Shown here: in pieces, positions 349 to 33,300 of the stretch
Layout of the letters: every line of letters starts with the position of its first letter
Position numbering within the stretch: position 1 is the stretch's first letter
Assembly (NCBI RefSeq): GCF_964213995.1
Contig: NC_135808.1
Coordinates: forward strand, 14,384,001 to 14,448,000
Length of the DNA stretch: 64,000 nt
Direction of reading: 5' to 3'
From: Mustelus asterias
Lineage: Eukaryota
Made by a program: the position numbers and the translations under genes
The notes under the pieces: generated by a model
The model's input: only the letters and a program-made list of their open reading frames with translations
Database searches by the model: none
Told to the model about the DNA's origin: nothing

Positions 349-3300
349 GTGAGTAAACTGGAGACTGAATAATAAAGATGTATAAAATGGGACAGGAAAT
401 AGAGGAAAAACAGCAAGAATGGAATATATACATTCATAGGAAATGATCTCCGAATATAACAACTTCGGTTTGTACTTGGTCTGCTGAAGAAGTTCTAAAA
501 GCTACAGGCATAGATCAACAAATATCTATTTAAGGAAGATTGCCATGTGTTTTGTTGTACTCAGAGACAATAGATTTCTAATGACATGGTAATACTGCAA
601 TACACAAAGTGAATTGCATATTTTTACGAAAGTACATAAAACTTCTGCGAATTAGAAAAGTAACATTACAATCACTCTGTGCTCTATTCAAAAAATGAAT
701 TCAACAGAGGTTCTATGAGACTCACATGCAGACTGGAGATGGAGGATTCACCGTCGCGACTTCTTTTTACCGTTTTAGGAACAGCAAGGCGGCTGGAAGA
801 AATGTACAAAGGTATGCACATGTGAATTTATATTCCACAGAAATATGTCACTTATTAATAATGTAATATTATTTTAAAACATTTAACGGAAATGGGCATT
901 TGTGCGTTTCGTGATATCCAACTTCTGTGGGGTAATAATGAATGATCATTTTTAATATCTTTGCTTCCAATATATGATTGGTGGAGTGACATTTTTTTTT
1001 GTTAATTTCGTTTGTGTGAATGAAACGCTAATTTACCTTCTTTAAAGAATCTCCAAGCATTTCGATACTAGGCATGCGCAGGGGCAATTTGACTTATTAT
1101 TGTTAGGTATCAACATACCTAACTGTTGAAAGCTTTTGTTTCTTGCGCTGTCTCGTATCTCTGAACAAATGGAACTGTTCCTTGACATATCTATCATGTT
1201 CCATCTACAGTATTGTTGTGTGTTGTGCTTACTTTTGAGCCCAGTCTACGTTTTCAGTGTGACTTAATATTCCCACATCGATATCTTCTTGTAACTTCAG
1301 ACTTCCTTCACTCTTAACAAATCTCCCAATCTTCGTGTAGAAAATCAATGAAGCTTTATACAGGCGGCATATTGCACCACATCTCAGGAAGTACTTAATG
1401 AAAACCATACGTTTGCTGCAATCATCCGGAATAGGTTGACATCTGCTCTTCTCTCTCTCTCTCTATCAATCAATCTCCCTGCCTATCTACCNNNNNNNNN
1501 NNNNNNNNNNNNNNNNNNNNNNNNNNNNNNNNNNNNNNNNNNNNNNNNNNNNNNNNNNNNNNNNNNNNNNNNNNNNNNNNNNNNNNNNNNNNNNNNNNNN
1601 NNNNNNNNNNNNNNNNNNNNNNNNNNNNNNNNNNNNNNNNNNNNNNNNNNNNNNNNNNNNNNNNNNNNNNNNNNNNNNNNNNNNNNNNNNNNNNNNNNNN
1701 NNNNNNNNNNNNNNNNNNNNNNNNNNNNNNNNNNNNNNNNNNNNNNNNNNNNNNNNNNNNNNNNNNNNNNNNNNNNNNNNNNNNNNNNNNNNNNNNNNNN
1801 NNNNNNNNNNNNNNNNNNNNNNNNNNNNNNNNNNNNNNNNNNNNNNNNNNNNNNNNNNNNNNNNNNNNNNNNNNNNNNNNNNNNNNNNNNNNNNNNNNNN
1901 NNTATCGCACTGCCTGCTGTCTATCTGTCTGACTATCGAGCTGATTATCTGGCTGCCTATACTTCTGTCTGTTTCTCTCGAGACCGAGCTCTATGCAACT
2001 GTTGCTGCTTCCAGCTGATGACCTTCTCACCACAAAAAAAAACAACTTCCAAACAAGAATGATAAAAAGCAAGAATGAAGTTTAGCAAATGGAAAACAGA
2101 ACGGAGAAAAATGATCCACGGGATACATTAGTTACGTGAAACAGGAAGAGATTGACAGTCAGTTGACGAGCTGTCATTCGACTGACTGAAAATTGCAGCT
2201 GCAACAAACCGTTACTGGGCTATTCTGTGATGGACAGGCAACAATTCAAAATCGAAGTGGACGCCAGAAAAGCAATTTCGTTGATATGAAAATGTGTTTA
2301 CCTAGAGAAACCATGACATATTGCCTTTTTTCCTAAAATCTAACAGCAAAACATACACTGGGGAAGCGTTGCATTGTGGGGCCATATTGATGCACATGTG
2401 CACCAAATGATCAGGCTGCAGACATTCCCCTGCACATAATTAAAGGTAACTATCCAGCCCTCATGAGGAGAATCTGCTGGAGAGAATTATGCTAAACTGG
2501 GACAAGGTGAATCCCGTGTCAGTGCCAGAAGCAGGTTTACTGAAGACTTGAAAGAAACATGCCATTTTTAATGAGAACTGGGATGCATAAAAATAATATC
2601 AGTCAAGATAGAAATTAAGGAAGAACGTCATACAAAACACATAAAGGATCGGTGAGTGTCGTAGGCCATCCGGCTGAAGGTCGTGGCTGCTCAATGTATG
2701 GGTCATGAGCCACGTTAATGGCACAGTGACGAAGAAAAATGTTTCAGTAAGCATTTGTGACAAATTTAAAGTCACTTACAATCGGAACTGTTTGTAGAGC
2801 AGCACCCTCTGCCATTAATTGGTGATTTGTTTGCTGGCTTGGCTGGGCGCCAGCATTTCAGCAAAGCTGACCTTAGTCAAGCTTCACTCAAGGGAAATAT
2901 GGATCCAGATTTACAATAATATTTGACCATCTTGACGCACGAAGTATGACTCGGATATGAAAGACTTCTATTTTGTAATATGCCTGGAGTTGTGTGGTTC
3001 CACCGTGTCATGCATAGACCAAATTCGAAGGAGACTAGAAGGCGTCCAGTTCTGCTTAGACAATATCTTGGTTACTGGAAAGAATGAAGAAGAACATCAT
3101 CAAAGTTTAGAGATTAGAAGATGGCATAATGTCAGTATTCCGTTGGACAGCTGGGGCAGATTATAGATGCAGAGGAACTGCAAAATTCGCCTTCAATCTT
3201 GAAAGCCATAACTGAGGCACCTGTACCTCAAAACGTGAATCAACTGCGTTCTTTCTTGGACTGACTAAGCTTTCTAGAAAGTTTGTCTCTGATCTTGCAA

Positions 3301-6300: not shown

Positions 6301-9300
6301 CACCCCCAGCATAGTGACTGCACCCTTCCTGTTTCTGAGTTCCACCCACAGCGACTCAGTACATGACCCCTCTAAGTTGTCTACCCTCTGCACCGCGGTA
6401 ATATGCTCCTTAACTAATATCGCTACTCCCCCACCTTTTTTAGCCCCTCCTCTGTCTCGCCTAAAACGCTTATACCCCGGAATATTCAGCTGCCAGTCCT
6501 GTCCTTTTAACCAAGTTTCCGTCACCGCAACCACATCCAAATTCCGCATAAGCATTAAGGCCCTAAGTTCGTCTGTTTTACCCGTTACACTCCTCGCATT
6601 GAAGCAGATGCACTCCAGACCTCCAGGCCCACTCAGATCATCCTCCTCCAGAGTGCTCCTCTTCTTAGCTAGCCTTGCCCTGGCCCGCAGCTCAACCCCA
6701 GCCTCAGTATTTACTGACCTACTGTTTTGTTCCCTACCCCCCTGCCACACTAGTTTAAATCCTGCCGAAATACTCTAGCAAAACTCCCAGCCAGGATATT
6801 TGCTCCCTTCCAGTTGAGGTGTAACCCATCCTTTCTGTACAGTTGCCATCCTGACTTGAAGATTTCCCAGTTATCTATGAATTTAAAACCCTCCCTCTTG
6901 CACCAGTCCTTTAGCCACGCGTTCAACTGTAGAATCTCCCTGTTCCGAGCCTCACTTGCACTAGACACCGGGAGCAGTCCAGAGATTGCTACCCTGGAGG
7001 CCTTACTTTTTAGCCGAGCACCCAACTCCCTGAATTTCTGTCGCATGACCCCCCTGCTCTTCCTACCTACATCATTTTCACCAATGTGTATAATCACATC
7101 CGTTTGACTACCTTCCTTTTTAAATATTTCCTTGTCATTTTGTGCTCTGCAAGCATATCCTTTAAACAGACCACAGCTTCCCATCCATGAAATAAGTAAA
7201 ACAGACGTAACGTCATTCGAAACCTAGTTACTAGCTGGTACAAACTATGAATATGAATCATCATCCCTAGACGTGCTCTGTGCTGTTACAATTATAAAGT
7301 CCCTTATTAACGGAACTGAACTGTGTCTAATTTGTTTGACTAGTTTAGCGACGAATTTAATAAAGACTTCATTATTTCGTGACAATTGTTTTAAAACCAT
7401 TACTGTTTTGACAATTAGTTACTTAACTAATATCTCCCGACTTCAATACTTGCTTTTCGAAAATACAATTATCATGCTGACTCCCTTCCCCCTCACATCA
7501 GTTTCTTGCACTCTCTCTCTGCCTTTTCTTCTGGAACGCCTCTGTCACTATTTCTAATGAGGTCGATGGTGTTCCCACCGCTCTCACGCTGTCTCTCTCC
7601 CACTGTCTTTTGGTCTCGACTGCGAATGCGGCATTGCCGTTCAGATTCGTGAAGTACAAGTCGTTGCCAGAAGGAACATTGTACATGTCGCATAAAGGAA
7701 GAAAATTTCGATTGTTTCGGTTATTTTCCTATCAGTCATATCGGATTTTCTATCCTTGGGCGATTTATCATTTCAGGAATCGGATCAATAAAAGATGCAG
7801 TGAAAGATATGGGTGAATAAACGGAAAAATGAATAATATATTTGATTGAATTGGGACAGCAATTAGAGGAGAAACAGCATAAATTGAATATCTGCCTTCA
7901 TGGGCAGTTCAATTAATCAGTGGTCTCCGAATATAAGAACTACCGTTTGTACTTGGTCTACGTAACATGTTCCAAAGCCCCAGGTCAACGAATATCCATT
8001 TAAGTAAGATTGCCATCTACTTTATTGTATTCTCGATACAATCGATTTCGAGGGAAATGGTATGACATCAATATAGAAAGCGAAGGTACAAAACCATTCG
8101 GCAAACTAGAAGGGCAGCTTTACACTCAGAACTCCTGTGCCCTATTCAAAATATGAATTCTATGACACTCCCATGCAGACTGGAAATAAAAGATTCACGG
8201 TCGCGACTTTTCTGTCACCTTTTTAGAAACAGTAAGGAAGCTGGGCGGAAAATACAGCGGTAGGCACATTTTAATTTATGTTTCACAGAATGATGCCAAT
8301 TATTAATGTTGTCATATTATTTTGGAACATTTAACGGACATTGGATATTGGTCCGTTTCATGATACCAACCTTGTGTGGGGTGATAATGAATGATCGTTC
8401 TTCATATGATTGCTTTCTGTATATAATTGGAAGAGTAACATTATTTTTAATTAATTTCTTTTGTGTGAATGAAGTGCTTAATTTGCTTTACCGAAGGAAC
8501 TACAACAACTTTGATATTGGACATGCGTGGCAACAAAAATGTTCTGATGGTACAAGAGTTATGAACACAAATTTAAGGTTTTGTAGAGGACTATTATGAA
8601 ATGTGAAGAGGAAGATTTCTATGCATAGAGTGGGTGTGACCTGAAATATGATGCGTTCTGGGTGGTGGAAGCAGAGAAGATAAATATTTCCAATGGGAAT
8701 TGGATGTGCAGTTGAGAGGGAAGCATTTGTATGGCCTTGGGAAACAAAGTGTGATTGGCACATACTAGATTCCTCTACATAGAGCTGGCATGGACAAGGT
8801 GGGCCGATAGTTCTTCTTCTGTGACGTTATGAGCTAGAGTCCAATAGAAAAAAATGTTTTATTTTTACTGATTCTTTCACAAGATGTGTCGCTGGCTGGG
8901 CCAGAATTCATTGCCCATCCATTACTGCCATTGAGAAGGCAATGCCAAGCAATCTTTGTGAACGTCTGCAGTGTCTCCCAGAAGATGGTATCGCATAGAA
9001 CATACCAATTATTGTATTGTGCCTCCATTTTAGTAGCTGTAACGAAATGGATGAGTTCTTTGACACCTTTATGATATTCCATCTCCGGTAGTGTCATATT
9101 ATCCAAAGTATGTTGTGCCTTCTTTTGAGCCCACTCTGCGTTTTCACTATGACATGATATTTCCACATGGATTGCCGTGCCCATTGCGCACCAAATTTAT
9201 TTGCCACATAACTCTATGTTCAGGTGCATGAACAATAAATTAAAATTGTGTTATTTCTTCGCCTGAACTTGAAACAATCTGGGATCTTGCCATCCCTTGC

Positions 9301-12300
9301 TGCAGTGCTGAACCCTGTTCTTCCTGCCTACTGTAACATTCCATTTCCCGCTCCCCTGCCAATTTAGTTTTCATTTCCTGAACAGCAGTAACAACCCACC
9401 CTGAAAAGGGACTATACTCAGATCTGTTGAACGGAAACTACTCCAGCCTGGAATTGTTCCAGTTCCCTTTGTGTCTACATCAAGATCCCTCTCTTCTGAT
9501 CAGCCAAACCGTCATTCTTTTTATACACCTATGATTATTGTCTTTGCATCTTTTTAGCCAATTTCCTGCCGAGATACTTAAAATCTTCCTGCAGTATCTC
9601 ATTTTCCTTTCGATGTCATTTCGATGGCTGGCGTAACTGTTCTGCACGCAGGAGGAACAAACAGATTTGCACAGCATGGTTAGGGAGGTGATCATAATTC
9701 ACGTTAACAGCATGCTGGATCAGAGCGAATGGGCGACTGAGAGGTAGGTGCACATCTCCAAGCAGTTTGTGCAGGGGCCTCGAGAGTCCACCCTGCTCGC
9801 CAATCAGTTTTCCACTTCTGATATTCGTGAGGGCGATTTTTCCCCAGTAGCGAGCAGCCAAACTCAATTCTGTGCCACCATGGTGTCTTTGCTGCACAGA
9901 CGTGGAGGCAGAACAACAGATATAGAACATACCATATCCAAGGCCGATTTTGCACAAACGTGGCATCAAGAAACTTTCGCAAAACAGGAGTCAAGGGAAC
10001 TAGAGGCAGAATTGTCTGCTGGTTTGAGTCATACTTGCCACAAAATAAGATGTTTGTGCTTGTTCGAAGTCTATCATCTCAGCTCCAGGGCATCACTACA
10101 GATGTTTCTTAGGATTGTGCCCTTAGCCAAACGACCTTCAGCTCTTCCATCAATGACGTTCCTTCCATCATAAGGTCGGAGGTTGAGGTGTTTCTCTGAT
10201 GATTGCTCTGTTCTTCAGTCCCATTCTCAACTTCTCAGACACTGAAGCAGTCCATGTCCAAACGCAGCAGGACAATTTCCAGACATGCACTGACAAGTGG
10301 CAAGTAACGTCCATGTCTTTCAAATACCATACAATGACCATTTCCAGCAGGAGAGTATCCAAACATTGCCACTTGACGCTCAATGACTTTACCACCGCTG
10401 AGTCTCATACTATCAATGCGGGTGGGTCAGCATTAACCAGAAACTTAACTGTCAGAGCCATATAATGCTGTGGCTATAAGAGGCAGTTAGCAGGCCAGGA
10501 TCTCTGTGGCGAATAACACCGAAACCTGCCCACCATCGATAAAGCGCAAGTTAGGACTGTGATGGAGTACTCGCCACTTGCTTGGATGAGTGGAGCTCGA
10601 ACAACAGTCAGCTTGATACCATCCAGGAAAAGGCAGCCCACTTGATTGGTATCCCGCCCACAAATATTCACTCTCTTCACCACTGGCGATCAGTGGCAAC
10701 CTTGTGTACTAACTGCAACAGTCACTGTAGGAGCACATGCAGGTTTCTTGGGTCCTTTTTTTTCGAAATAACACTTCATATTCAAACGAGCTACCCACCT
10801 AATATCACCCTACCGCACAACTTGCTTTTCAATAATGCAGTCATGTCGGCTCTGTTCCCTCTGACATCTGTTTCTCACTCCCCCCGCCCCCTCTCTCTGC
10901 ATTATCTGCTGCAACGCCTCTCGTAATGTCTCCAATGAGGCCGGTGATGTTCGCATCGGTCGCCCTCTGCCTCTCTCCCTCACTCTCTTCTGTTCCCGAT
11001 AGCGAATGCCTGTATTTCCGCTCAGGCATCTGAAGTGTAAGTTGTTGCTACAATGAACATTTTGTATGTTGCCTAAAGGAAGAAGAAAATCGTCTGTTTT
11101 AGTTTTTTCTACCATTCATATGGAATTTTCCACCCTAAGACGTTTTACATTTCAGAATTAGGATCATTAAAAGAAACAGTAAAAGATATGGGTGAGTAAA
11201 CTGGAGACTGAATAATAACGATGTACAAAATGGAACAGGATAAAGAGGAAAAACAGCAAGAATGGAATATGTACTTTCACAGGAAATGATCTCCAAATAT
11301 AACAACTTGGGTTTGTACTTGGTCTGCTGAAGAAGTTCTAAAAGCTTCAGGCACAGGTCAACAAATATTTATTGAAGTCAGATTGCCATGTGTTTTATTG
11401 TACGTACTCTCGAGACAATAGATTTCTAACAAAATGGTAATACTACAATACAGAAAGTGAATTGCATAATTTTATGAAAGCACATAAAACTTCTGCCAAT
11501 TAGAAGAGTAGCATTATAATCACTATTGTCCTCTATTCGAAATATGAATTCGACAGAGACCATAAGACCATAAGACCATAAGACATAGGAGCGGAAGTAA
11601 GGCCATTCGGCCCATCGAGTCCACTCCACCATTCAATCATGGTTGATTTCAACTCCATTTACCCGCTCTCTCCCCATAGCCCTTAATTCCTCGAGAAATC
11701 AAGAATTTATCAATTTCTGTCTTGAAGACGCTCAACGTCTCGGCCTCCACAGCCCTCTGTGGCAATGAATTCCACAGACCCACCACTCTCTGGCTGAAGA
11801 AATTTCTCCTCATCTCTGTTCTAAAGTGACTCCCTTTTATTCTAAGGCTGTGCCCCCGCGTCCTAGTCTCCCCTGTTAATGGAAACAACTTCCCTACGTC
11901 GATCCTATCTAAGCCGTTCATTATCTTGTAAGTTTCTATCAGATCTCCCCTCAACCTCCTAAACTCCAATGAATATAATCCCACGATCCTCAGACGTTCA
12001 TCGTATGTCAGGCCTACCATTCCTGGGATCATCCGTGTGAATCTCCGCTGGACCCGCTCCAGTGCCAGTATGTCCTTCCTGAGGTGTGGGGCCCAAAATT
12101 GCTCACAGTACTCCAAATGGGGCCTAACCAGTGCTTTATAAAGCCTCAGAAGTACATCCCTGCTTTTGTATTCCAAGCCTCTTGAGATAAATGACAACAT
12201 TACATTTGCTTTCTTAATTACGGACTCAACCTGCAAGTTTACCTTTAGAGAATCCTGGACTAGGACTCCCAAGTCCCTTTGCACTTTAGCATTATGAATT

Positions 12301-15300
12301 TTGTCACCGTTTAGAAAATAGTCCATGCCTCTATTCTTTTTTCCAAAGTGTACGACCTCGCACTTGCCCACGTTGAATTTCATCAGCCACTTCTTGGACC
12401 ACTCTCCTAAACTGTCTAAATCTTTCTGCAGCCTCCCCACCTCCTCAATACTACCTGCCCCTCCACCTATCTTTGTATCATCGGCAAACTTGGCCAGAAT
12501 GCTCCCAGTCAGAGGTTCTATGAGACTCACATGCACACTGGAGATGCAGGATTCACCGTCGCGACTTATTTTTACCGTTTTAGGAACAGCAAGGCAGCTG
12601 GAAGAAACGTACAAAGGTACACATATGTGAATTTATATTCCACAGAATTATGTCACTTATTAATATTGTAATATTATTTTAAAACATTTAACGGAAATGG
12701 GCATTTGTCCGTTTCGTGATATCCATCTTCTGTGGGGAATAATGAATTATCATTTTTAGTACATTTGCTTCCAATATATGATCGGTGGAGTGACTTTTTT
12801 TTAGTTAATTTCGTTTGCGTGAATGGAACGCTCATTTACCTTCTTTAAAGAATCTCCAAGAATTTAGATACTGGGCATGCGCAGAGGCAATAAAAATCAC
12901 ATGTTACATGAGCTGGAAAGATAAATTCTTGATTTGAATTATTATTGTTAGGTATCACGATACCTAACTGTTGAAAGCTGTTGTTTTTTGCGCTGTTTTG
13001 TATCTCTGAACAAATGGAACCGTTCCTTGACATACATATAGAACATAGAACATAGAAAAACTACAGCACAAACAGGCCCTTCGGCCCACAAGTTGCGCCG
13101 GTCATGTCCCTACCTACCGAGGCCGATAGAGAGGCTTACCTATAACCTTCAATCCTATTAAGTCCCATGTACTCACCCAGAAGTCTCTTAAAAGACCTAT
13201 CCAGTTTGCCTCCACCACCATAGCCGGCAGCCGATTCCACTCACCCACCACCCTCTGAGTGAAAAACTTACCCCTGACATCTCCTCTGTACCTACTCCCC
13301 AGCACCTTAAACCTGTGTCCTCTCTTAGCAGCCATTTCAACCCTGGGAAAAAGCCTCTGAGAATCCACCCGATCTATACCTCTCAACATCTTGTGCACCT
13401 CTATCAGGTCACCTCTCATCCTTCGTCTCTCCAAGGAGAAAAGACCGAGCTCCCTCAACCTATCCTCATAAGGCATGCCACGCAATCCAGGCAACGTCAT
13501 TGTTAATCTTCTCTGCACCCTTTCAATAATTTCTACATCCTCCCTGTAATGGGGCGACCAGAACTGAGCACAGTACTCGAAGTGGGGTCTGACGAGGGTC
13601 TTATAAATCTGCATCATTATCTCCCGACTCCAAAACTCAATCCCTCGATTGATGAAGGCCAGCACACCATATGACTTCTTAACCACCTCCTCTAACTGCG
13701 AGGCCGATTTAAGAGTCCTATGAACCCGGGCCCCAAGTCCTTCTGATCCTCTACACTGCTCAGAGTCTTACCTTTGATATCATACTCCTTCATCCCATTT
13801 GACCCGCCAAAATGTACCACTACACATTTATCCGGGTTGAAGTCCATCTGCCACTTCTCCCCCCAGTCTTGCATCCTATCTATGTCACGCTGCAGCTTCT
13901 GACATCCCTTCAAACTATCCACAACACCACCAACCTTCGTGTCGTCGGCAAACCTACCAACCCATCCCTCCACTTCCTCATCCAGGTCATTTATGAAAAT
14001 GACAAACAGCAAGGGTCCCAGAACAGATCCGTGGGGCACTCCACTGGTGACCGACCTCCATTCAGAAAAAGACCCATCTACAAGACCTATCGACAACCAC
14101 TACAACCTTCTGCAGGCAAGCCAGTTCCGGATATATATGTATATAGATATAGATATATATATATATATATATGATATTCCATCTACAGTATTGTAATTAT
14201 TCACAGTATGTTGTGCTTACTTTTGAGCCCAGTATACGTTTTCACTATGACTTAATATTCCCACATCTATTTCTTCCTGTAACTTCAGACCTTCTTCACT
14301 ATTAACCAATCTACCAATCTCCATGTATAAGATCAATGAAGATTTACTCGGGCGGCATTTGGAAAATATCTCAGGAAGAACTCAATGAAAACCATAAGGC
14401 TGCTGCAATAATCTGGAAAAAGTTGACGTCTGCCCTTCTCTCTCTCTCTCTCTGTATCNNNNNNNNNNNNNNNNNNNNNNNNNNNNNNNNNNNNNNNNNN
14501 NNNNNNNNNNNNNNNNNNNNNNNNNNNNNNNNNNNNNNNNNNNNNNNNNNNNNNNNNNNNNNNNNNNNNNNNNNNNNNNNNNNNNNNNNNNNNNNNNNNN
14601 NNNNNNNNNNNNNNNNNNNNNNNNNNNNNNNNNNNNNNNNNNNNNNNNNNNNNNNNNNNNNNNNNNNNNNNNNNNNNNNNNNNNNNNNNNNNNNNNNNNN
14701 NNNNNNNNNNNNNNNNNNNNNNNNNNNNNNNNNNNNNNNNNNNNNNNNNNNNNNNNNNNNNNNNNNNNNNNNNNNNNNNNNNNNNNNNNNNNNNNNNNNN
14801 NNNNNNNNNNNNNNNNNNNNNNNNNNNNNNNNNNNNNNNNNNNNNNNNNNNNNNNNNNNNNNNNNNNNNNNNNNNNNNNNNNNNNNNNNNNNNNNNNNNN
14901 NNNNNNNNNNNNCTCTATCGCACTGTCTGCTGTCTATCTCTCTGACTATCGAACTGTTTATCCGGCTGCCTATCCTTCTGTCTCTTTCTCTCGAGACCTA
15001 GCTCTAAGCAACTGTTGCTGCTTCTAGCTGATGACCTTCTTACCACAAAAAAAAACAACTTTGAAACAAGAATGATAAAAAGCAAGAACCAAGTTTAGCA
15101 AATGGAAAACCGAATAGAGAAAAATGACCCACGGGATACATGAATGACGTGAAACAGGAAGAGATTGACAGTCAGTGGATGACCTGTCACAGGACATACT
15201 GAAAATTGCAGCAGCAACAAACCACTGCCTGGTGCATCCAGAACTGGCTTGCCCAAAGGACAGTAAGAAGTTTAACAACACTAGTTTAAAGTCCAACAGG

Positions 15301-18300: not shown

Positions 18301-21300
18301 TAATTTGTTTGACTAGTTTAGCGACGAATTTAATAAAGACTTCATTATTTCGTGACCATTGTTTTAAAACCATTCCTGTTTTAAATAACAAAATCACATT
18401 GACAATTAGTTACTCAACTAATATCTCCCGACTTCAATGCTTGCTTTTCGAAAATACAATTATCATGCTGACTCTCTTCCCCCTCATATCAGTTTCTTGC
18501 ACTCTCTCTCTGCCTTTTCTTCTGGAACGCCTCTGTCACTATTTCCAATGAGGTCGATAGTGTTCCCACCGCTCCCACTCTGTCTCTCTCCCACTCTCTT
18601 TTGGTCTCGAATGCGAACGCGAGCATTGCCGTTCAGATTCGTGAAGTGCAAGTCGTTGCCAGAAGGAACATTGTGCATGTTGCATAAAGGAAGAAAAATT
18701 CGACTGTTTCGGTTATTTTCCCATCAGTCATATCGGATTTTCTATCCTGGGGCGATTTATCATTTCAGGAATCGGATCAATAAAAGATGCAGTGAAAGAC
18801 ACGGGTGAGTAAACGGAAAAATGAATAATATATTTGATTGAATTGGGACAGCAATTAGAGGAGAAACAGCATGAATTGAATATCTGCCTTCATGGGCAGT
18901 TCAATTAATCAATGGTTTCCGAATATGACAACTTCCGTTTGTACTTGGTCTGCTTAACATGTTCCAAAACCCCAAGCACAGGTCAACGAATATCCATTTC
19001 AGGAAGATGCCATCATAAGAACAGGACATGACGCTCGACTCATCGATCGACATTTCCGACACGCCACAGCGAAAAACCGCACCAACCTCCTCAGAAGACA
19101 AACATGGGGCACGGTGGACAGAGTACCCTTCGTCGTCCAGTGCTTCCCCGGAGCAGAAAAGCTACGACATCTCCTCCGGAGTCTTCAACATGTCATTGAT
19201 GAAGACGAACATCTCGCCAAGGCCATCCCCACACCCCCACTTCTTGCCTTCAAACAACCGCACAACCTCAAACAGACCATCGTCCACACCAAACAATCCA
19301 GCCTTCAGGAGAACAGTGACCACGACACCACACAACCCTACCACAGCAACCTCTGCAAGATGTGCCGGATGATCGACACGGATGCCATCATCTTACATGA
19401 GAACACCATCCACCAGGTACACGGTACATACTCTTGCAACTCGGCCAACTTTGTCTACCTGATATGCTGCAGGAAATGATGTCCCGAGGCATGGTACATT
19501 GGAGAAACCATGCAGACGCTACGACAACGGATGAATGAACACCACTCGACAATCACCAGGAAAGACTGTTCTCTTCCTGTTGGGGAGCACTTCAGTGGTC
19601 ACGGGCATTCGGCCTCTGGTATTCGGGTAAGTGTTCTCCAAGGCCGCCTTCACGACGCACGACAGCGCAGAGTCACTGAGCAAAAACTGATAGCCACGTT
19701 CCGCACACATGAGGACGGCCTCAACCGGGATCTTGGGTTCATGTCACACTATCAGTAACCCCCACAGCTTGCCTGGACTTTCAAAATCTCACTAGCTGTC
19801 CTGTCTGTAGACAATACACATCTCTTTAACCTGCGCTTAATGCTCTCTCCACTCGCATTGTCTGTACCTTTAAGACTTGATTAGCTTGATTAGCATTCCA
19901 ATCATTATTCTGTAAATTGAGTTTGTGTCTCTGTATGTCCTGTTTGTGAGCTCATCTCCCGCTCCACCTGATGAAGGAGCAGCACGCTTCGAAAGCTAGT
20001 GGCGTTTGCTATCAAATAAACCTGTTGGACTTTAACCTGGTGTTTTTCGACTTCTTACGGTTTACTTACATCACAGGGACTGCAGCCGTTCATGAATACG
20101 GATTATCAAGGCCTTCTCAAGGGCAGTTAAGAATTGCTAATGAATGTGTGCCATCCAACGACGCCCACATCCCCAGAATTAAGGAAGGAATCCGATGCTC
20201 AACCATGATCGACTTCGAATTTACAATAACGTATTGGAAATATGTTGGAGGAAATAATACAAACATACAATCACCTACTAATGGCCATCTTCATGTCAAA
20301 TATATATTCATTGGTAACAGACTAACTTATTTGCTTCTGGCTTAAGCAAAGTTGTACTCGTGACAACCACTATATTGTTTCTTCACAGAGGATGTTTCAT
20401 CTTCGGACACCTTGCTTTCAAAACTGTAATGTAATGCTCAGTGTTCTGTTGATTTCTTTACTCAAACCATGTAATTAGGGACTGATTTGATATTACCAAT
20501 CATTCCGAATCTTTCATCGGTAGATTCAAACTTGCGACCTAATATTACCATGCTGATTTAGCAGTCGAGCAGATCAGTTGGTTGGTCTGTTAAGTTGACA
20601 CATTTCCACAATAGAAAATTTTCAACCTTATATTTTCAGAGTTTCCAACGTATGTTTCCATTCATATCCAGACATATCATGTAGAACACATTGTTTTGTT
20701 TGACTAATGGATGCATTTCGATAGTTTCTTTCAAAAAATAAATAAAAGCGGGCTTAGAAACGTAGCCTTCCTTTGGAACCCCGACAATCACCGTTCCCCC
20801 TTACCGTAATGATTAGAGCCCTTTTCATGGAAGTATCTTTACTACATTCTTCCCTTAAACACTACACCGATATATTCAGCAACCAGCACTCTTCCAAGTT
20901 TCTCCAGACGTGCTAAAAATATTCATCAAGCACTTAATTGTATACGTTTGATATCACACCGATTTTCTTGCCATTTCTATCAGCTAAATTAGCAGACTGC
21001 TCCAGCACCATCCCTGGAAATTTCCTTCTAAAAGCTCCCCATAATTTTCTTGTCCAAAAAATAAACCGAAAATTACTGTGCAGGCAAAACTGAAGATTAC
21101 TGTACAGACAAAACTGAAAATTAGTGCGGAGACGTTACCCACTTCAAGATAATATGTGTATAAACCCACACCAGAACTATTACAAACTTAAATATGTGTG
21201 CAACAAGATATTTGTTGAAATGTGGTTAGTTTAACTCGTTTAGCCAGGAATTCAAGAGAGAACTTGATACTTTCATGACCATTGTATTTAAACGCGTCCT

Positions 21301-24300
21301 TTTTTAAAATAACAAAATCATATTCACAGCTAGTTACTAACCTAATATCAGCCTACTTCACAACTTGCTTTTCAAAAATATTTTTCGACTCTGTTCCCTC
21401 TGACATCTGTTTCTTGTTCTCTCTCTTTCGCTGCGTTTCCTTCTGCAGCGCCTCTGCTAATGTCTCCAATGACGTCGGTGATGTTGTAAGAAGTTTAACA
21501 CCAGGTTAAAGTCCAACAGGTTTATTTGGTAGCAAAAGCCACACAAGCTTTCGAGGCTCTAAGCCCCTTCTTCAGGTGAGTGGGAATTCTGTTCACAAAC
21601 AGAACTTATAAAGACACAGACGCAATTTACATGAATAATGGTTGGAATGCGAATACTTACAACTAATCCAGTCTTTAAGAAACAAAACAATGGGAGTGGA
21701 GAGAGCATCAAGACAGGCTAAAAAGATGTGTATTGTCTCCAGACAAGACAGCCAGTGAAACTCTGCAGGTCCACGCAACTGTGGGAGTTACAAATAGTGT
21801 GACATGAACCCAATATCCCGGTTGAGGCCGTCCTTGTGTGTGCGGAACTTGGCTATCAGTTTCTGCTCAGCGACTCTGCGCTGTCGTGTGTCGCGAAGGC
21901 CGCCTTGGAGAACGCTTACCCGAATATCAGAGGCCGAATGCCCGTGACCGCTGAAGTGCTCCCCAACAGGAAGAGAACAGTCTTGCCTGGTGATTGTCGA
22001 GCGGTGTTCATTCATCCATTGTCGCAACGTCTGCATAATTTCCCCAATGTACCATGCCTCGGGACATCCTTTCTTGCAGCGTATCAGGTAGACAACGTTG
22101 GCCGAGTTGCAAGAGTATGTACCGTGTACCTGGTGGATGGTGTTCTCACGTGAGATGATGGCATCTGTGTCGATGATCCGGCACGTCTTGCAGAGGTTGC
22201 TGTGGCAGGGTTGTGTGGTGTCTTGGTCACTGTTCTCCTGAAGGCTGGGTAGTTTGCTGCGGACAATGGTCTGTTTGAGGTTGTGCGGTTGTTTGAAGGC
22301 AAGAAGTGGGGGTGTGGGGATGGCCTTGGCGAGATGTTCGTCTTCATCAATGACATGTTGAAGGCTCCGGAGGAGATGCCGTAGCTTCTCCGCTCCGGGG
22401 AAGTACTGGACAACGAAGGGTACTCTGTCCACTGTGTCCCGTGTTTGTCTTCTGAGGAGGTCGGTGCGGTTTTTCGCTGTGGCGCGTTGGAACTGTTGAT
22501 CAATGAGTCTAGCGCCATATCCTGTTCTTATGAGGGCATCTTTCAGCGTCTGGAGGTGTCTGTTGCGATCCTCCTCATCCGAGTAGATCCTGTGTATTCG
22601 GAGGGCTTGTCCGTAGGGGATGGCTTCTTTAACGTGTTTAGGGTGGAAGCTGGAGAAGTGGAGCATCGTGAGGTTATCCGTGGGCTTGAGTACCCTTCGT
22701 TGTCCAGTACTTCCCCGGAGCGGAGAAGCTACGGCATCTCCTCCGGAGCCTTCAACATGTCATTGATGAAGACGAACATCTCGCCAAGGCCATCCCCACA
22801 CCGCCACTTCTTGCCTTCAAACAACCGCACAACCTCAAACAGACCATTGTCCGCAGCAAACTACCCAGCCTTCAGGAGAACAGTGACCAAGACACCACAC
22901 AACCCTGCCACAGCAACCTCTGCAAGACGTGCCGGATCATCGACACAGATGCCATCATCTCACGTGAGAACACCATCCACCAGGTACACGGTACATACTC
23001 TTGCAACTCGGCCAACGTTGTCTACCTGATACGCTGCAAGAAAGGATGTCCCGAGGCATGGTACATTGGGGAAATTATGCAGACGTTGCGACAATGGATG
23101 AATGAACACCGCTCGACAATCACCAGGCAAGACTGTTCTCTTCCTGTTGGGGAGCACTTCAGCGGTCACGGGCATTCGGCCTCTGATATTCGGGTAAGCG
23201 TTCTCCAAGGCGGCCTTCGCGACACACGACAGCGCAGAGTCGCTGAGCAGAAACTGATAGCCAAGTTCCGCACACACAAGGACGGCCTCAACCGGGATAT
23301 TGGGTTCATGTCACACTATTTGTAACTCCCACAGTTGCGTGGACCTGCAGAGTTTCACTGGCTGTCTTGTCTGGAGACAATACACATCTTTTTAGCCTGT
23401 CTTGATGCTCTCTCCACTCCCATTGTTTTGTTTCTTAAAGACTGGATTAGTTGTAAGTATTCGCATTCCAACCATTATTCATGTAAATTGCGTCTGTGTC
23501 TTTATAAGTTCTGTTTGTGAACAGAATTCCCACTCACCTGAAGAAGGGGCTTAGAGCCTCGAAAGCTTGTGTGGCTTTTGCTACCAAATAAACCTGTTGG
23601 ACTTTAACCTGGTGTTGTTAAACTTCTTACTGTGTTTACCCCAGTCCAACGCCGGCATCTCCACATCATGTCGGTGATGTTCCCATAGCTCCCACTCTGC
23701 GTCGCTCTCACTCTCTTCTGTTCTCGAACGCGAATGCGTGTATTTCCGATCAGGTATCTGAAGTGTCAGTTGTTGCTACAATGAACATTATCCATGTTTC
23801 TTAAAGGAAGAAAACAAAGCGATTATTTCAGTTTTTCCTGCCAGTCATATCGAATTTCCCACCCTGAGACGTTTTATCATTTCAGAATTAGGATAATTTA
23901 AAAAAAACAGTAAAATATATGGGTGAGCAAAAGGAAAACTGAATAATAAATTTGAATAAAATGGGACAGGAAATAGTGGAAAACTGCAGGAATGAAATAT
24001 GTACTGTTGTAGGTAAAAATAGCTCTGAGTCTATTCGTCGGTCAAAATACAGTGGTTTATTTGCACAATTGTGGGAGACCATCCGATGCCCAACATGGCC
24101 TCAGACTTCACAGCAAATACAGGTTAAAAACATATATTTATACCCCCCCTGTCACGTTCAGTTTCCCAGGCCGCACAGGTTCCCAGGCTGTGGCTTATCT
24201 TCCATCGTGTGAACGTTGCTGCCTTGGCGGTTTCTTCACGGTTGCCTCAAGGCCGTGACTGTTATTCTCTGAACACAGGTGGGATATCTTACAAATGTAC

Positions 24301-27300
24301 AAGGTTACAGTCTCGTACAAACAAGTTAACTGGCATACAACAATTTATATATGTTCGTAGGTACTTGTATAATGTATATCGGTGCAGGTTATGCTGAATA
24401 TATATATGAATGTATCATTATACAATCACAGAAGGCCTACATGTAGGCTTCTACTGTTACACAGCGGTACATGTTAAAGAATACAAAATGGTGGGGTTCG
24501 CCACATTCCGGAACAGATTAGCCGGTCACAACATATTCTTCTATATCACAGCTGCTACCCTTATTTGTTCTAGGATACATGAGCATGAAAATACCCTAAC
24601 GTAAACATGAGTTCTACAGTGTTTCTCACACAATCTCTAAATAGCACAGAATTCACTTCGACACTTTGAGTATTAGAATTCATTAACCCATTCCCGTCTT
24701 CAGTACCTTCAGAGGAAATTGTCCCCAAATATAACAACTTCCATTTATACTTGGTCTGCTTAAGAAGTTCCAAAAGCTCCAGATACAGGTCAACAAATAC
24801 CTATTTAAGTAAGATTTCCATTTTCTTTATTGTACTCTCGAGACAATAGATTTCTAACGAAATGGTAATATAGCAATACAGAAAGTGAATTGCATATTTT
24901 TACGAAACACATAAACATTCTGCCAATTAGAAGAGCTGCATTATAATCACTGCTGTGCTCTATTCAAAACATGATTTCAATTAGGTTTTTTGACACTCAC
25001 ATGCAGACTGGAGATAGAGGATTCACCGTCGCGACTTATTTTTACCGTTTTAGGAACAGCAAGGCAGCTGGAAGAAAAGTCCAAAGGTACGCAGAAGTGA
25101 ATTTATATTCCACAGAATGATATCACTTATTAACATTGTAATATTATTTCAAAATATTTAACAGAAATGGATATTTGTCCTTTTCCTGATACCCACCTTC
25201 TGTGGGGCAATAATGAATTATCATTTTTGTATGTTTGCTTCCAATATACGATCGGTGGAGTGACCTTTTTTGGTTAATCTCTTAATTAATATCTTCCTGT
25301 AACTTCAGATATTCTACACTATTAACTGTTCCGCCAATCTTGGTGTATAAAATCAGTGAACCTTGNNNNNNNNNNNNNNNNNNNNNNNNNNNNNNNNNNN
25401 NNNNNNNNNNNNNNNNNNNNNNNNNNNNNNNNNNNNNNNNNNNNNNNNNNNNNNNNNNNNNNNNNNNNNNNNNNNNNNNNNNNNNNNNNNNNNTTTCTTT
25501 CTATCTGTCCACCTGTCTATTTATCTGACTGCCTTTCTATCTGTCTATCTGTCTGACTATCCAGCTGTATATTCAACTGTCTATTTCTCTGTTGAAATTT
25601 CGCTCAATGCAACTGTTGCTGCTTCTAGCTGATGACCTTGTCACCAGAAAGGAAAAACAACTTCCAAACATGAATGATAAAATGCAAGTACATTGTTCAG
25701 CAAATGGAAAACCGAATTGAGAAAAATGATCCGTGGCTTACATTAATTACGTGAAACAGGATGAGATTGGTGACGAGCTGTCACTGGACATCGTGAAAAT
25801 TGCAGGTGCAACACACCGTTACTGGTTATGGACAGACAACTAGTTAAAATCGAAGTGGGCACCAGAACAGCAATTTCGTTGGTAGGAGAAAGTGTTCTCC
25901 AAGAGAAACCATGACATATGCCATTAAAAGCCTAAAATATAATAGGAAAACCTACACTGGGGAAGCAGTTGCATTGAGGGGCCATATTGATGTAAATGTG
26001 CACCAAATGATCGGACTGCACACTTTCCCCTGCACATAATTAAAGTTAACTATCCAGCCCTATTGAGGAGAACATGCTAGAGAGAATCATGCTAAACTGG
26101 GACAAAGTGAATGTCCTGTCAGTATCTGAAGCAGGTCTATGGAAGATTTGAAAGAAACATGCTATTGTTTTTAATGGGAACTGCGAAGCATCAGTCAGAC
26201 ATCAGTCAAGATAACGATTAAGGAAGAACGTCATGCAAGATGCGTAAAGGGTAGGTTAATGCCATTGGACAACAGATCTAAGATCAAGGCTGCTCAATGC
26301 ATGGGTCGTGTGTTTGAGCCATGATAATGATACCCGTGATGAAGAAAAATGTTTCAGTCAGCATATGAGGCAACTTTGAAGTTACCAAAAATTCGGTACG
26401 GTTTGTAGAGCAGTACCCTCTGCCATTAATTGGTGATTTGTTTGCTGACTTGGCTGGACGCCAGCATTTCAGCAAAACTGAACTTAGCCAAGCTGAACTC
26501 CAGAGAAATATGAATCCAGATTCACAATAATGTTGATCGTCGTGACTGTCGTGACTATTCGGATATGAAAGACTTCCATTTTGCATAATGTCTGTAATTG
26601 AGTGGTTCCAACGTGCCATCCATGGGTCAAACTCGAAGCAGACGAGAAGGCGCCAAGTTCTCCTTAGGCGATATCTAAGTTTCATGGCCATTGTTTTTTC
26701 ACTCGTCTTTTTTTAAAATAACAAATTTCATATTCAGTATTAATTAATATCACCCTACTTCACAACTTGCTTTTCAAAAATACAAAGTCATTTCGACTCT
26801 CTTCCCCCTGACACCTGTTTCTTGCTCACTCTGCGTTTTCTTCTGCAACGCATCTGCTAATGTCGCCAATGAGGTCGGTGATGTTCCCATCGCTCCCTCT
26901 CTGTCTCTGTCTGTCTCTCACTCTATCGCTCTTTTGTGTTCCCGACAGCGAATGCGTGTATTTCCGATCAGGTATCTGAAGTGCAAGTTGTTGCTACAGT
27001 GAACCCAACGTATGTTGCTTAAAGGAAGAAAAAATCGATTGTTTCAGATTTTCCTACCAGTCATATCGAAGGTCCCACCCTGAGACGTTTTATCATTTCA
27101 GAATTCGGATCATTAAAAGAAGCAGTGAAAGATATGGGTGAGTAAACAAAAAACTGAACAATGAATTTGAATAAATGGGACAGGGAATAGAGGAAAATCA
27201 GCAAGAATGGAATATGTACATTCATAGGGAATGGTCTCCAAATATAACAACTTCCGTTTGTACTTGGTCTGCTTAAGAAATTCCAAAAGCTCCAGACATA

Positions 27301-30300
27301 GGTCAACAAGTATCTATTTGAGTAAGATTGCCATTTGCTTTATTGTACTCTCGAGACAATAGATTTCGAAGGAAAGGGTAATACAGCAATGTGGAAAGTG
27401 AATTCCATATTTTTGCTAAAGCACATAAGCCTTCTGCCAATTAGAAGAGCAGCATTACAATCACAACGTCTGTGCTCTGTTCAAAATATGAATTCAACAG
27501 AAGTTCAATGACACTCACATGCAGGCTGGAGATAGAGGATTCACGGTTGCGACCTATCTTTATGGTTTTAGGAACAGCAAGGCAGCTCGAAGAAAAGTAC
27601 AAAGGTACGCACATGCGAATTTATATTCCACAGAATTATGTCACTTATTAATATTGTAATATTACTTTAAACCATTTAAAGGAAATGGACATTTTTCCGT
27701 TTTGTGATACCCACCTTCTGTGGAATAATAATGAATTATAATTTTTAGCTTGCTATCCTTTAGTTTGCTTCCTATATATGATCGGTGGAGTGACTTTTTA
27801 GTTAAACGTTCAATTAATATCGTCTGGTAACTTCTGAACTTCTTCACTCGTAACCAACATCTTTCAATCTTGGTGCATAAAATCAATAAAGCTTTATTCA
27901 GGCGAAATGTTGCACCACATCACAGGAAGAACTCAGTTAAAACCATATCGTTGTTGCTGTCATCCGGAGNNNNNNNNNNNNNNNNNNNNNNNNNNNNNNN
28001 NNNNNNNNNNNNNNNNNNNNNNNNNNNNNNNNNNNNNNNNNNNNNNNNNNNNNNNNNNNNNNNNNNNNNNNNNNNNNNNNNNNNNNNNNNNNNNNNNNNN
28101 NNNNNNNNNNNNNNNNNNNNNNNNNNNNNNNNNNNNNNNNNNNNNNNNNNNNNNNNNNNNNNNNNNNNNNNNNNNNNNNNNNNNNNNNNNNNNNNNNNNN
28201 NNNNNNNNNNNNNNNNNNNNNNNNNNNNNNNNNNNNNNNNNNNNNNNNNNNNNNNNNNNNNNNNNNNNNNNNNNNNNNNNNNNNNNNNNNNNNNNNNNNN
28301 NNNNNNNNNNNNNNNNNNNNNNNNNNNNNNNNNNNNNNNNNNNNNNNNNNNNNNNNNNNNNNNNNNNNNNNNNNNNNNNNNNNNNNNNNNNNNNNNNNNN
28401 NNNNNNNNNNNNNNNNNNNNNNNNNNNNNNNNNNNNNNNNNNNNNNNNNNNNATGATGTTCTCACCAGAAAGTAAAAAAAACAACTTCCTAACAAGAATG
28501 ATAAAAAGCAAAAACCAAGTTTAGCAAATGGAAAGCCGAATAGAGAAAAATGATCCACGGGATACATTAATTACGTGAAACAGGATGAGATTGACAGTCA
28601 GGTGACGCGCTGTCACTGGACATACTGAACATTGCAGGTGAAACAAACCGTTATTGGGCTGTTCCGTGATGGACAGGCAACAAGTTAAAATCGATGTGGA
28701 CACCAAAACAGTAAATCGTTGGTATGATAAAGTGTTTACCAAGAGAAACCATGACATATTCCATTAAAACCCTAAAATATAATAGAAAACTTACACTGGG
28801 GAAGCGACTGCATTGTGGGGCCGTATTGCAAGTGCACCAAATGATCAGACTGCAGACTTTCCCCTGCACATAATTAAAGGTAACTATCCAGCCCTAATGA
28901 GGAGGACCTGCTGAAGAGAATCATGCTAAGTTGGGACAAGGTGAATGTCCTGTCAGTGTCTGAAGCAGGTCGACGGAAGATTTGAAAGAATCATGCCATT
29001 GTTTATAATGGGAACTGGAAAGCGTGAGACTGATCTCAGTCAAGGTAAATATTCAGGAAGAACGTGATGCAATATGCTTAAAGGGTAGGTGAGTGCCATC
29101 GGGCATCAGGCCAAATGTTGCTGCTGAATGCATAGGTCATGCGTTTGAGCCACGTTAATGGTACCCTGATGAAGAACAATGTCTCAGGAAGCATATGTGG
29201 GAACTTTTAAGCCACTTAGAATTCGGTACTGTTTGTGGAGCAGCGCCCCCTGCCTTTAATTGGTGATTTGTTTGCTGTCTTGGTTGGATGCCAGCATTTC
29301 AGCAAAGCTGACCTTAGTCAAGCTTAACTCCAGAGAAATATGGAGCCAGATTCACAATAATATTTGACAATCGTGACGCACAAAAGAATATTCACATATG
29401 AAAGACTTCCATTTTGCATTATGTCTGTAGTTGAGTGGTTCCAACATGCCATGCATAGGTCAAATTCAAAGCAGACTAGAAGGCGTCAAGTTCTGCTTAG
29501 ACAATATCTAACTTTCATGGGCATTGCTTTTACATTGGTCTTTTTTGGAATAACAAAATCATAATCACAATTACCTAATATCCCCCTACTTCACAACTTG
29601 GTTTTCAAAAATACAAAGTCATATCGACTCTCTGTCCCTGACATCTGTTTCTTGCTCTCTCTCTCTCTCTGCGTTTTCTTCTGGAACGCATCTGCTCATG
29701 TCTCCAATGAGGTCGGTGATGTTCCCATCGCTCCCTCGCTATCTCCCTGCCTCACTCTGCTGTGTTCTTTACAGGGAATGCGTGTATTTCCGATCAGGTA
29801 CATGAAGTGTAAGTTGTTGCAAGAATGAACATTATGCACGTTACCTAAAGGAAGAAGAAATTATTGTTTCAGTTAGTCATTTCGAATTTCCCACCCTGGG
29901 ACGTTTTGTTATTTCAGAATTAGGATCATTAAAAGAAGCAGTGAAAGAAATGGGTGAGTAAACGGAAAACTGAATAATCAATTTGAATAAAATGGGACAG
30001 GAAATAGAGGAAAAACAGCAAGAATGGAATATGTGCCATCATCGGAAATGGTCTCCGAATATAACAACTTCCATTTGTACTTGGTCTGATTAATGAGTTC
30101 CGAACGCTCCAGGCACAGGTCAGCGAATACCTATTAAGTAAGATTGCCATTTGCTTTATTGTACTCTCAAGGCAATAGATTTCTCAGGAAATGGTAATAC
30201 AGCAATAGGGAAAGTGAATTCCACATTTTTACGAAAGCACATAAACCTTCTGCCAATCAGAAGAGCAGCATTACGATCACAACTCCTGTGCTCTATTCAA

Positions 30301-33300
30301 AATATGAATTCAACAGATGTTCTATGAAACATGTAGAATGGAGATAGAGGATTCACGGTCGCGACTCATTTAACCGTTTTAGGAACAGCAAGGCACCTGG
30401 AAGAAAAGTACAAAGGTACGCCCATCTGAATTTATATTCCACAGAATGATGTCACGTATTAATTTTGTAATATTATTTTGACAATTTTAACGGAATTCGA
30501 AATCTGTCCGTTTTGTGATACCCACTTTCAGTGGGGTAATAATGAATAATCATTTTTAATATGCTTGCTTTCAATGTATGATCGGTGGAGTGACTATTTG
30601 TTGCTTAATTTCGTTTGTGTGAATGAAACGCTTATTTAACTTCGTTGAAAAAAGCTACAAGAATTTCGATAGTAGACATGTGTGGGCAATAAAAATCACA
30701 CTGATGGTAGAAGAGCTCGGAACACAACTATTTGATTTGGTTTGATTTATTATTGTCACATGTATCAATATACAGTAAAAGTTATTGTTTCTTGCGCTAT
30801 ACTGATAAAGCATACCGTTCATAGCGAAAGAAAGGAGAGATTGCAGAATGTAGTATTACAATCATAGGTAGGATGTAGAGAAAGATCAAATTAAAACAAG
30901 GTACGTCCATTCTGAAGTCTGATGACAGCAGGGAAAAAATGTTCTCCAGTCGGTTGGGACGTGTCCTCAGACTTTTGTACCTTTTTCCTGACGGAAGAAA
31001 GTGGAAGAGAGTTTGTCCAGGGTGCGTGGAGTCCTTGCTTATGCTGGCCGCTTTTCCGAGGCAGCAGGAAGTGCAGACAAAGTGAATGGATGGGAGGCTG
31101 GTTTGCGTGATGTACTGGGCTTCTTTCACGATCCTTTGTAGCTTTTTGGCAGTCTTGGGCTGAGCAGGAGCCATACCAAGGTGTGATATCACCAGAGACA
31201 ATGCTTTCTATGGCGCATCTGTAAAAGTCGGCGAGATTCTTAGAGGACATGCCACACTTCCGTAGGCCCCTGAGAAACTAGAGGCATTGGTGGGCTTTCT
31301 TAACTATTTCCTCAGCTTGTAGGAACCAGGACAGGTTGTTGGTGATCTGGCACCTAGAAACCTGAAGCTCTTGACCATTTCTGCTTCGCCCCCGTTGATG
31401 TAGACTGGCGCATGTCCCTTCTTCGTTTTGTTGATTTCGTTTTTCCTCCTTCGTTTTGTTAACATTGAGTGAGAATTTATTGTCGTCGCACCAGTTCACC
31501 AGATTCTCTTTCCTGTCCGCTGTCTCATCATTGTTTGAGTTTTGCTGAGGACTACTGTGAAATGTGAAGAAGAAAATTTCTGTGCAGAGTGGCAGTGAAC
31601 TGCAACATGGTTCCTGCAAAGGTGGCGGAAGTAGAGAAGACCAATACTTTCAATCGGATGGGCAGTTCTGAAGGAAACATTTGCATGGCTATTGGGATGC
31701 AATGCGTGGTTGGCAGACTGAATTCCTCAACCGCTTGCCAGTATGGGCAAGATGGCCTGAAAGGCCTTCTTCTGTAATGTTATGAGTTAGAGTCCAATGC
31801 AATGAAATGTTTTATTGTTGCTGATTATTTCACAGGACGTGGGCGTCGCTGGCTAGGCCATAGTTCATTGCCTATTCACAACTGCCACTGAGAAGGCAAC
31901 GCTGAGCCACCTCCTTGAGCGCCTGCAGTATCTCCCAGAAGTTGGTATCTCATAGAACACACCCAGGACCGTAATACTGCCTCAATTTTTGTAGCTCTAA
32001 ACAAATGGTTCCGTTCCTTGACACTAACATTCCATCTTCAGTATTGTAATTATCCACAATATGTTATGCCTTCTTTTCAGCCAGGACTACGTTTTCACCA
32101 TGATATAATATCCCCGCATCTCTATCTTCTTGTAATTTCTGACCTTCACTATTAACCAATCTACCAATCTTGGTGTATAATATCAATGAAACTTCATACA
32201 GGCGAAATGTTGCACCACATCTCAGGAAGAATTCAATTAAAACCATAATGTGGCAATCATCCGGAAAAAAGTTGGTGTCTGGCAAGTGAACGGATATTCA
32301 AGAGGCAGATAATTAGCAGGACTGGCCGCTCGAGAACTGGCCGCTGCCCACAGGTGCAACAGAGAACAAAGAACAAAGAAAATTACAGCACAGGACCAGG
32401 CCCTTCGGCCCTCCAAGCCTGCACCGACCATGCTGCCCGACTTAACTAAAGCCCCCTACCCTTCCGGGGACCATATCCCTCCATCCCTATCTCATTCATG
32501 TACTTGTTCAAGACGCCCCTTAAAAGTCACTACCGCACCCGCTTCCACTACTTCCCCTGGTAGCGAGTTTCAGGCACTCACCACCCTCGGTGTAAAAAAC
32601 TTGCCTCGTACATCTCTTTTAAACCTTACCCCTCGCATCGTAAATCTATGCCCCCTAGTAATGCACACTTCCGTCCTGGGAAACAGCTTCTGACTATCCA
32701 CTCTGTCCATGCCCCTCATAGTCATGTAGACTTCTATCAGGTCGCCCCTCAATCTCGTCGTTCCAGTGAGAACAAACCAAGTTTCTCCAACCTCTCCTCA
32801 TAGCTAATGCCCTCCATATCAGGCAACATCCTGGTAAATCTTTTCTGTACCCTCTCCAAAGCCTCCACATCCTTTTGATAGTGTGGCGACCAGAATTGAA
32901 CACTATATTCCAAAAGTGCTCTAACTAAAGTTCTATAGAGTTGTAACATGTCTTGCCAATTTTTAAACTCAATGCCCTGGCCGATAAAGGGAAGCATGCC
33001 GTATGCCTTCTTGACTACCTTCTCCACCTGCACTGCCACTTTCAGTCATCTGTGTACCTGTACACCCAGATCCCTTTGCCTATCAATAGTCCTAAGGGTT
33101 CTGCCATTGACTGTATATTTCCTATCTGTATTAGACCTTCCAAAATGCATTACCTCACATTTGTCCGTACTAAACTCCATCTGCCATCTCTCTGCCCAAG
33201 TCTCCAACTGATCTATATCCTGCTGTATCCCCTGATGGTCCTCATCGCTGTCCGCAATTCCACCAACCTTTGTGTCGTCTGCAAACATACTAATCAATCC

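Follow-up and report, generated by a model that had tools for sequence, protein, structure and literature searches.

Does a repeated 23-residue unit that resembles the neck of human DC-SIGN and L-SIGN (CD209/CLEC4M) point to a common origin with these lectins when it is found, divided among very short exons, in the genome of a shark? The unit lies in a 64,000-nucleotide (nt) stretch of the Mustelus asterias genome (contig NC_135808.1, positions 14,384,001 to 14,448,000; hereafter the window), where a first-pass annotation recognized it from the sequence and proposed either remote homology or convergence. The resemblance is real, remote homology is not supported, and what remains is chance, or convergence on a heptad helix that is interrupted by a break: we consider it highly probable that the array is a tandemly duplicated two-microexon unit within the gene for a predicted cytosolic coiled-coil rod that carries a B30.2 domain at its tip, and that its likeness to DC-SIGN owes nothing to descent. 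Coordinates below are those of the window, extended beyond both of its ends, so that the genome position on this contig (C8) is 14,384,000 plus the coordinate.

On the + strand, exons of 36 nt (A) and 33 nt (B), bounded by AG and GT, follow each other in alternation, and the whole array comprises ten A and nine B copies. The window contains six intact A exons, one broken A of 37 nt, and six B exons; three further copies of each kind lie upstream of it, from -14462 to -1994. The copies in the window are as follows.

313..348, + strand: A exon, 36 nt; the gene extends upstream of the window
779..811, + strand: B exon, 33 nt
7777..7812, + strand: A exon, second subtype
8227..8259, + strand: B exon, second subtype
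11156..11191, + strand: A exon
12584..12616, + strand: B exon, with a long interspersed nuclear element (LINE) inserted between it and its A
18769..18804, + strand: A exon, second subtype, no B partner found downstream
23886..23922, + strand: broken A copy, 37 nt, with an in-frame stop and a frameshift, strong splice signals retained
25054..25086, + strand: B exon
27102..27137, + strand: A exon
27572..27604, + strand: B exon
29918..29953, + strand: A exon
30383..30415, + strand: B exon, final repeat copy

The proposal that each repeat uses two microexons is borne out by these exon calls, and the rotated 23-residue consensus given at first sight is indeed the consensus of the nine intact A and nine B copies. 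The period of 23 residues (36 + 33 nt), which does equal that of the DC-SIGN neck, is read from splice signals, not from transcripts. The array is irregular at two points, the missing B after the A exon at 18769 and the broken copy at 23886. No read difference is listed at the latter site in two DNA runs; these behave as DNA from one sample, and their coverage of the repeat units is low and even. For positions 60800-62800 of the window, no RNA data set was listed. Several of the large repeat units (repeat families D2, D7, D11, D12, and D16) also carry a decayed fragment that by eye resembles the pol gene of a long terminal repeat retrotransposon and was duplicated together with the exons (window approximately 2050-3600, 15050-17950, 25600-26700, and 28450-29500).

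In which phase are these exons read? Phase 0 meets stops in all nine A copies, and every one of the 18 copies can be read through in phase 1 as well as in phase 2, so that stops in the repeat cannot by themselves select the phase. Three observations establish phase 1: the colinear match with the ortholog annotated in the catshark Scyliorhinus canicula, the exon at 38872, which is closed in phase 2, and the acceptor of the B30.2 exon, which is a phase-1 acceptor. The first-pass annotation had tied its comparison to a reading other than phase 2; the unique exons match the catshark protein in order, in phase 1, and phase 2 is thereby eliminated. More phase-1 microexons, spread between -60 kb and +61 kb, emerged from splice scans. 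Ten unique ones lie upstream, from -60289 to -17211, and seven of these match the catshark ortholog in order (one by eye). Downstream of the array, the chain continues as follows.

33498..33521, + strand: unique 24-nt exon with the first Cys of a CxxC (splice scan, catshark alignment)
34176..34202, + strand: unique 27-nt exon, conserved in catshark and ray
35403..35429, + strand: unique 27-nt exon, conserved in catshark and ray
38872..38919, + strand: unique exon of 48 nt, with 13 of its 16 residues the same in catshark
42456..42482, + strand: unique 27-nt exon, no clear ortholog match
61049..61075, + strand: 27-nt exon preceding B30.2; its catshark counterpart joins B30.2 directly
61141..61184, + strand: candidate exon of 44 nt, splice signals strong, stop in phase 1, absent from the catshark models
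72038-72561 (L021:8038-8561), + strand: terminal B30.2 (PRY-SPRY) exon, intact, 8 kb past the window end (hidden Markov model (HMM), Pfam, PDB)

The 44-nt candidate follows a 65-nt intron, and its inclusion with the phase-1 stop would yield a form without B30.2. Read from phase 2 into phase 1 it is open, a frame that an alternative acceptor at 61015 would make available. We infer that about 35 exons are spliced in phase 1 to approximately 530 residues, with the broken A and the 44-nt exon skipped. A script-built model of 35 exons, which omits 23886 and 61141, retains the weakly spliced first unit, and has an uncertain start, is open over 532 residues. The broken A must be skipped because its stop and frameshift block a full-length protein, and the A-B alternation stays intact when it is. 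In this model the gene is compact, with about 130 kb for about 530 residues, and it aligns with the catshark ortholog at 58% over 299 columns and 37% over 121 columns. Its repeat block has no match at E < 0.01 among the fetched proteins. An alignment of A+B, a weak profile in which A and B are mixed in the same columns, found none of 5143 candidates at E <= 10 in a protein search and two chance matches in the PDB; the ESM Atlas gave no usable match. An AlphaFold model of the catshark ortholog was set aside (mean predicted local distance difference test score, 38.6).

What does the chain end in? An HMM built from 12 B30.2 exons of this genome gave a single match among 42,736 open reading frames in 1.66 Mb, at +71.8 kb (E 1e-25). 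The exon there, which begins at 72038, matches SPRY in Pfam (E 7e-13), and its best PDB match is BTN3A1 (E 2e-25). Over the same reading frames, a lectin HMM (8 lectin exons) found nothing (best E 0.96), and a genome-wide lectin search, with 150 of 201 candidates scored, gave at least 38 matches, the nearest among those listed at C8:19.65 Mb. Both searches agree with the earlier remark that no C-type lectin exon lies nearby. The flanks, in which lectin-domain or transmembrane exons were to be sought, yielded neither; what they yielded instead is the B30.2 exon. No membrane or signal segment was found in the model or in the catshark and ray orthologs, where the highest hydropathy over 19 residues is 1.34 for the model and the catshark and 0.59 for the ray, as against 2.75 in a true type II lectin; the 5' end of the gene in this comparison comes from prediction, not from RNA. 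A tblastn search from -400 to +135 kb with 170 proteins (32 with RING-like and 22 with IgV-like motifs) gave B30.2 only, besides scattered single-query matches from three proteins, which we read as LINE-derived. At approximately -92 kb, the first coding exon of an RRM gene (L010:7605-7865, - strand; Pfam RRM_1, E 4e-9), which we take to be RBM4-like, lies head-to-head with the B30.2 gene and leaves little space for an overlooked ectodomain. An initial reading as a secreted protein was dropped for want of a credible signal exon, and a PRY-like motif at +160 kb was attributed to chance. The gene is not a lectin.

With the B30.2 exon as query, one protein emerged among 289 candidates, the catshark XP_038672308 (451 residues; B30.2 70% identical), and a full HMMER search with this protein added the electric ray XP_069775385, whose B30.2 is 49% identical. 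The orthologs are XP_038672306-310 of S. canicula ("TRIM39-like") and XP_069775384-390 of Narcine bancroftii ("zinc-binding protein A33-like"). They share the CxxC-region exons and the exon order with the M. asterias gene; Pfam finds PRY and SPRY only in both, and not the RING or B-box parts that the automatic names imply. Neither has the repeat expansion: the catshark counterpart of A+B is a single 21-residue stretch (P0004 208-228), and no repeat array was seen in the ray ortholog. A tree of B30.2 domains with 16 rows joins this gene to catshark P0002 and ray P0009 with support of 92/88. The three belong to a larger clade, supported at 100/100, that also takes in the paralogs at C8:17.30 Mb and on C20 and from which two fish butyrophilins and five TRIM-type domains of C8 are separate. 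A motif filter removed C20:14.30 Mb, one of the 11 genomic B30.2 rows, from the tree. The five C20 B30.2 exons closest to this gene lie at 9.42, 12.40, 12.75, 13.57 (with an internal stop), and 14.30 Mb; four of the C20 paralogs were checked, and each is preceded by candidate microexons (27 sense versus 4 antisense, a few being repeat-derived false calls). A chain of phase-1 27/36-nt exons ends in a B30.2 of this clade without an ectodomain, and the gene is a short, probably cytosolic member of a shark/ray family of microexon-encoded rods with B30.2. Literature searches, at the level of listings, returned no description of such a family.

A much larger + strand array of 27/36-nt phase-1 microexons was seen from +128 kb to at least +1.23 Mb (C8:14.51-15.61 Mb), with at least 123 candidates of 24-39 nt and samples also at 16.50 and 17.26-17.30 Mb. 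A related B30.2 exon, the next one along, lies at C8:17,297,773, and the larger array is possibly one gene of approximately 2.8 Mb. On either side of the locus, at C8 0.7-13.7 Mb and 18.7-32.2 Mb, lie well over 100 PRY/SPRY exons, which are of TRIM type where examined.

How did a 23-residue repeat arise in such a gene? The introns flanking the repeat copies are 63-94% identical, which identifies the array as a lineage-specific DNA duplication, and a tree of the units pairs -2478 with 7777 and 313 with 11156, so that larger blocks must have been duplicated as well. All nine A exons beat shuffled sequences (p <= 0.005) on a profile built from 51 exons of 36 nt in the neighbouring array, and seven of the nine exceed the leave-one-out median of the profile; judged by its sequence, A is an ordinary member of the 36-nt exon class of the family. 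The consensus of this class (Glu, Ile/Leu, two residues, Leu, Lys) is the source of four of the nine identities to DC-SIGN. The usual exon pair of the family is 36 + 27 nt, or 21 residues. In all eight B copies printed, an AG is located 6 nt inside the exon, which suggests a 27-nt exon lengthened by two codons. From these sequences, the period of 23 likely arose from the usual 21 by two added codons, possibly via a 6-nt acceptor shift in B.

These observations bear on the proposal of true remote homology, in which the unit would share an ancestral module with the CD209/CLEC4M neck that was shuffled into a B30.2 gene. Exons of phase 1-1 are compatible with such shuffling. The nine identities in 23 positions come with conservative pairs and the same period, and glycine stands where DC-SIGNR has its kink proline. 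Eight of the nine are legible by eye in the DC-SIGNR structure (PDB 1sl6), and the ninth is Leu6 (excerpt of PMC2971551). According to the same excerpt, Pro1 is the conserved kink between the 18-residue helices of a four-helix bundle; this proline is present in none of the 18 exon copies, most of which have the glycine. The catshark has one copy of 21 residues, A fits an exon class of its own family, and the CLEC4M neck is a 69-bp repeat inside a single exon (excerpt of PMC5794141). The neck is extracellular, the shark rod is predicted to be cytosolic, and the gene ends in B30.2 with neither a membrane nor a lectin part. A type II lectin of the same shark (P0168 on C19), with a membrane anchor, neck, and lectin domain and with langerin and DC-SIGNR among its best PDB matches, has no 23-residue period in its neck and at most six identities to the A+B unit. 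The shared period adds to the coincidence but is lineage-specific in this gene. In control comparisons, a likeness of this order is rare in a single comparison (0.2-0.9%): with all 23 rotations allowed, at least nine identities occur in 16 of 6242 coiled-coil-like windows and in 0.9% of shuffles. The earlier alignment scores 36 with BLOSUM62 by hand, on a neck string verified only in part. Among 161 unrelated fetched proteins (mostly B30.2 proteins, isoforms included), nine reach nine identities, six reach the score of 36, and four reach both in one window, thus matching equally well. A pairwise coiled-coil control was discarded because its windows were homologous and overlapping. Such a match is therefore unusual if a single comparison is made but to be expected across many proteins, and we regard remote homology as largely refuted and extremely unlikely.

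On C19, at 16.42-16.93 Mb, three type II lectin-like exons were seen, one of which belongs to P0168, a langerin/DC-SIGN-like receptor that has a neck repeat of its own. A literature search on the age of the CD209 neck expansion gave nothing usable.

If the unit is of unrelated origin, it may still fold as the DC-SIGNR neck does. Such structural convergence, in which a segmented four-helix bundle would tetramerise the B30.2 domains, is a sub-case of our preferred explanation with another oligomer, and we think it rather unlikely. Hydrophobic residues do occupy the neck-core positions, a Met-Gly-Thr junction falls at the position of the kink, and the exons are free of gaps and more conserved than most intron windows. 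On the other hand, a proline is lacking, Gly-Gly falls in mid-helix in the second B subtype, the amino-acid constraint is weak, and any three heptads plus two residues give the same pattern. A fuller version, in which a cytosolic B30.2 protein independently invented a neck of the DC-SIGN type (a two-codon extension from 21 to 23, a glycine kink, and ten tandem units that tetramerise and space the B30.2 domains, with exon skipping tuning the length), we hold to be unlikely.

Is the repeat maintained at all? Eighteen of the 19 repeat exons are free of stops and gaps, and no intact copy has a gap in its exon, whereas only 4 of 17 overlapping intron windows for A and 5 of 18 for B are free of gaps. 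Within the main subtype, exon identity is 92-93%, versus 81-85% for introns; when all B copies are compared, 14 of the 18 intron windows are as conserved as the exon. The frame thus seems to be kept and the sequence only loosely. It could also be argued that the gene, or its repeat part, is decaying, the array being a by-product of local DNA duplication and most transcripts truncated or repeat-skipping; one broken A, one lost B, the weak splice sites of the first unit, the 44-nt stop exon, and an excess of nonsynonymous changes all fit this. The gap-free exons among gapped introns, together with an intact B30.2 that is 70% identical to that of the catshark and an A-B alternation left intact by the loss of one B and the next A, make such decay distinctly unlikely.

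Several points weigh against the explanation that we prefer. On the 27-nt profile, the B exons do no better than shuffles (p 0.11-0.60), so that the two-codon gain is only suggested, and their internal AG is one inherited feature, not eight independent ones. Single-change codons are mostly nonsynonymous (97 of 127 in A and 94 of 114 in B, as pairwise counts among copies), which means that the amino-acid constraint on the repeat is weak. The broken A and the 44-nt exon keep strong splice signals, and the inclusion of either would cut the protein before B30.2. None of 1243 windows from the neighbouring array reaches nine identities (20 reach eight), so the DC-SIGN match is uncommon per comparison, and the period and the position of the helix break also agree with the DC-SIGN neck. 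Splicing, the first exon, and expression are deduced from the genome, not from a transcript of this species, and the oligomeric state and the B30.2 partner are proposals from analogy.

On the explanation by tandem duplication in a cytosolic rod, oligomers of the rod would form, most probably dimers of the kind proposed for the tails of butyrophilins and BG, and would hold B30.2 domains that bind a cytoplasmic partner. It may act in the manner of a free butyrophilin or BG tail (excerpts of PMC4046983 and PMC6790196), and since there is no RING, it would serve as a sensor or adaptor rather than as a ligase. With the nine repeats, the spacer would gain approximately 200 residues, or approximately 30 nm if fully helical. 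The link to DC-SIGN thus fails as homology, and what remains is a member of a cartilaginous-fish gene family, similar to the tail of a butyrophilin but devoid of the receptor part. Because its orthologs in a shark and a ray are annotated, albeit misnamed, the gene is a tractable entry point for work on expression and binding partners, unlike the megabase-scale array next to it, and it records how a rod changes in period (21 to 23) and in length through the duplication and loss of microexons.

Two other features were seen by eye nearby: fragments of open reading frames resembling a broken endogenous retrovirus (gag- and env-like) at approximately -182 kb to -176 kb, and a GC-rich insertion with Harbinger/PIF-like transposase remnants, split by a long CR1-type LINE, at approximately 48300-57100 in the window.

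How does the gene compare with known systems? With the DC-SIGN/L-SIGN neck (PDB 1sl6; excerpt of PMC2971551) it shares the 23-residue period, nine identities, and a heptad core broken at the same place, and it lacks the Pro1, the C-terminal C-type lectin domain, and the transmembrane anchor before the neck that characterize CD209/CLEC4M. All the repeats of those genes are in one exon, whereas the shark gene has two exons per repeat in a lineage-specific array (excerpt of PMC5794141). TRIM E3 ligases have a RING and a B-box, found neither in the gene nor in its orthologs. Judged by their defining parts, the gene is not a member of CD209, BTN, BG, or TRIM. Butyrophilins come closer in their plan, in which, as here, short heptad exons are followed by one large B30.2 exon (BTN3A1, PDB 4n7i; excerpts of PMC6790196 and PMC4046983), and the 44-nt stop exon would end the protein ahead of B30.2 as in BTN3A2 (excerpt of PMC6790196). 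They differ in their IgV, IgC, and transmembrane exons, which were not found here, and in having a few short exons as compared with approximately 34, and the B30.2 of the shark gene groups apart from that of the two fish butyrophilins in the tree. The chicken BG genes have exons of 21 or 24 nt, an IgV domain, and a membrane anchor, in contrast to the 27/33/36-nt exons and B30.2 end of the shark gene; nevertheless, they and the soluble zipper protein, like the shark gene, have a long coiled-coil tail encoded by many tiny exons, in numbers that vary from gene to gene (excerpt of PMC4046983).

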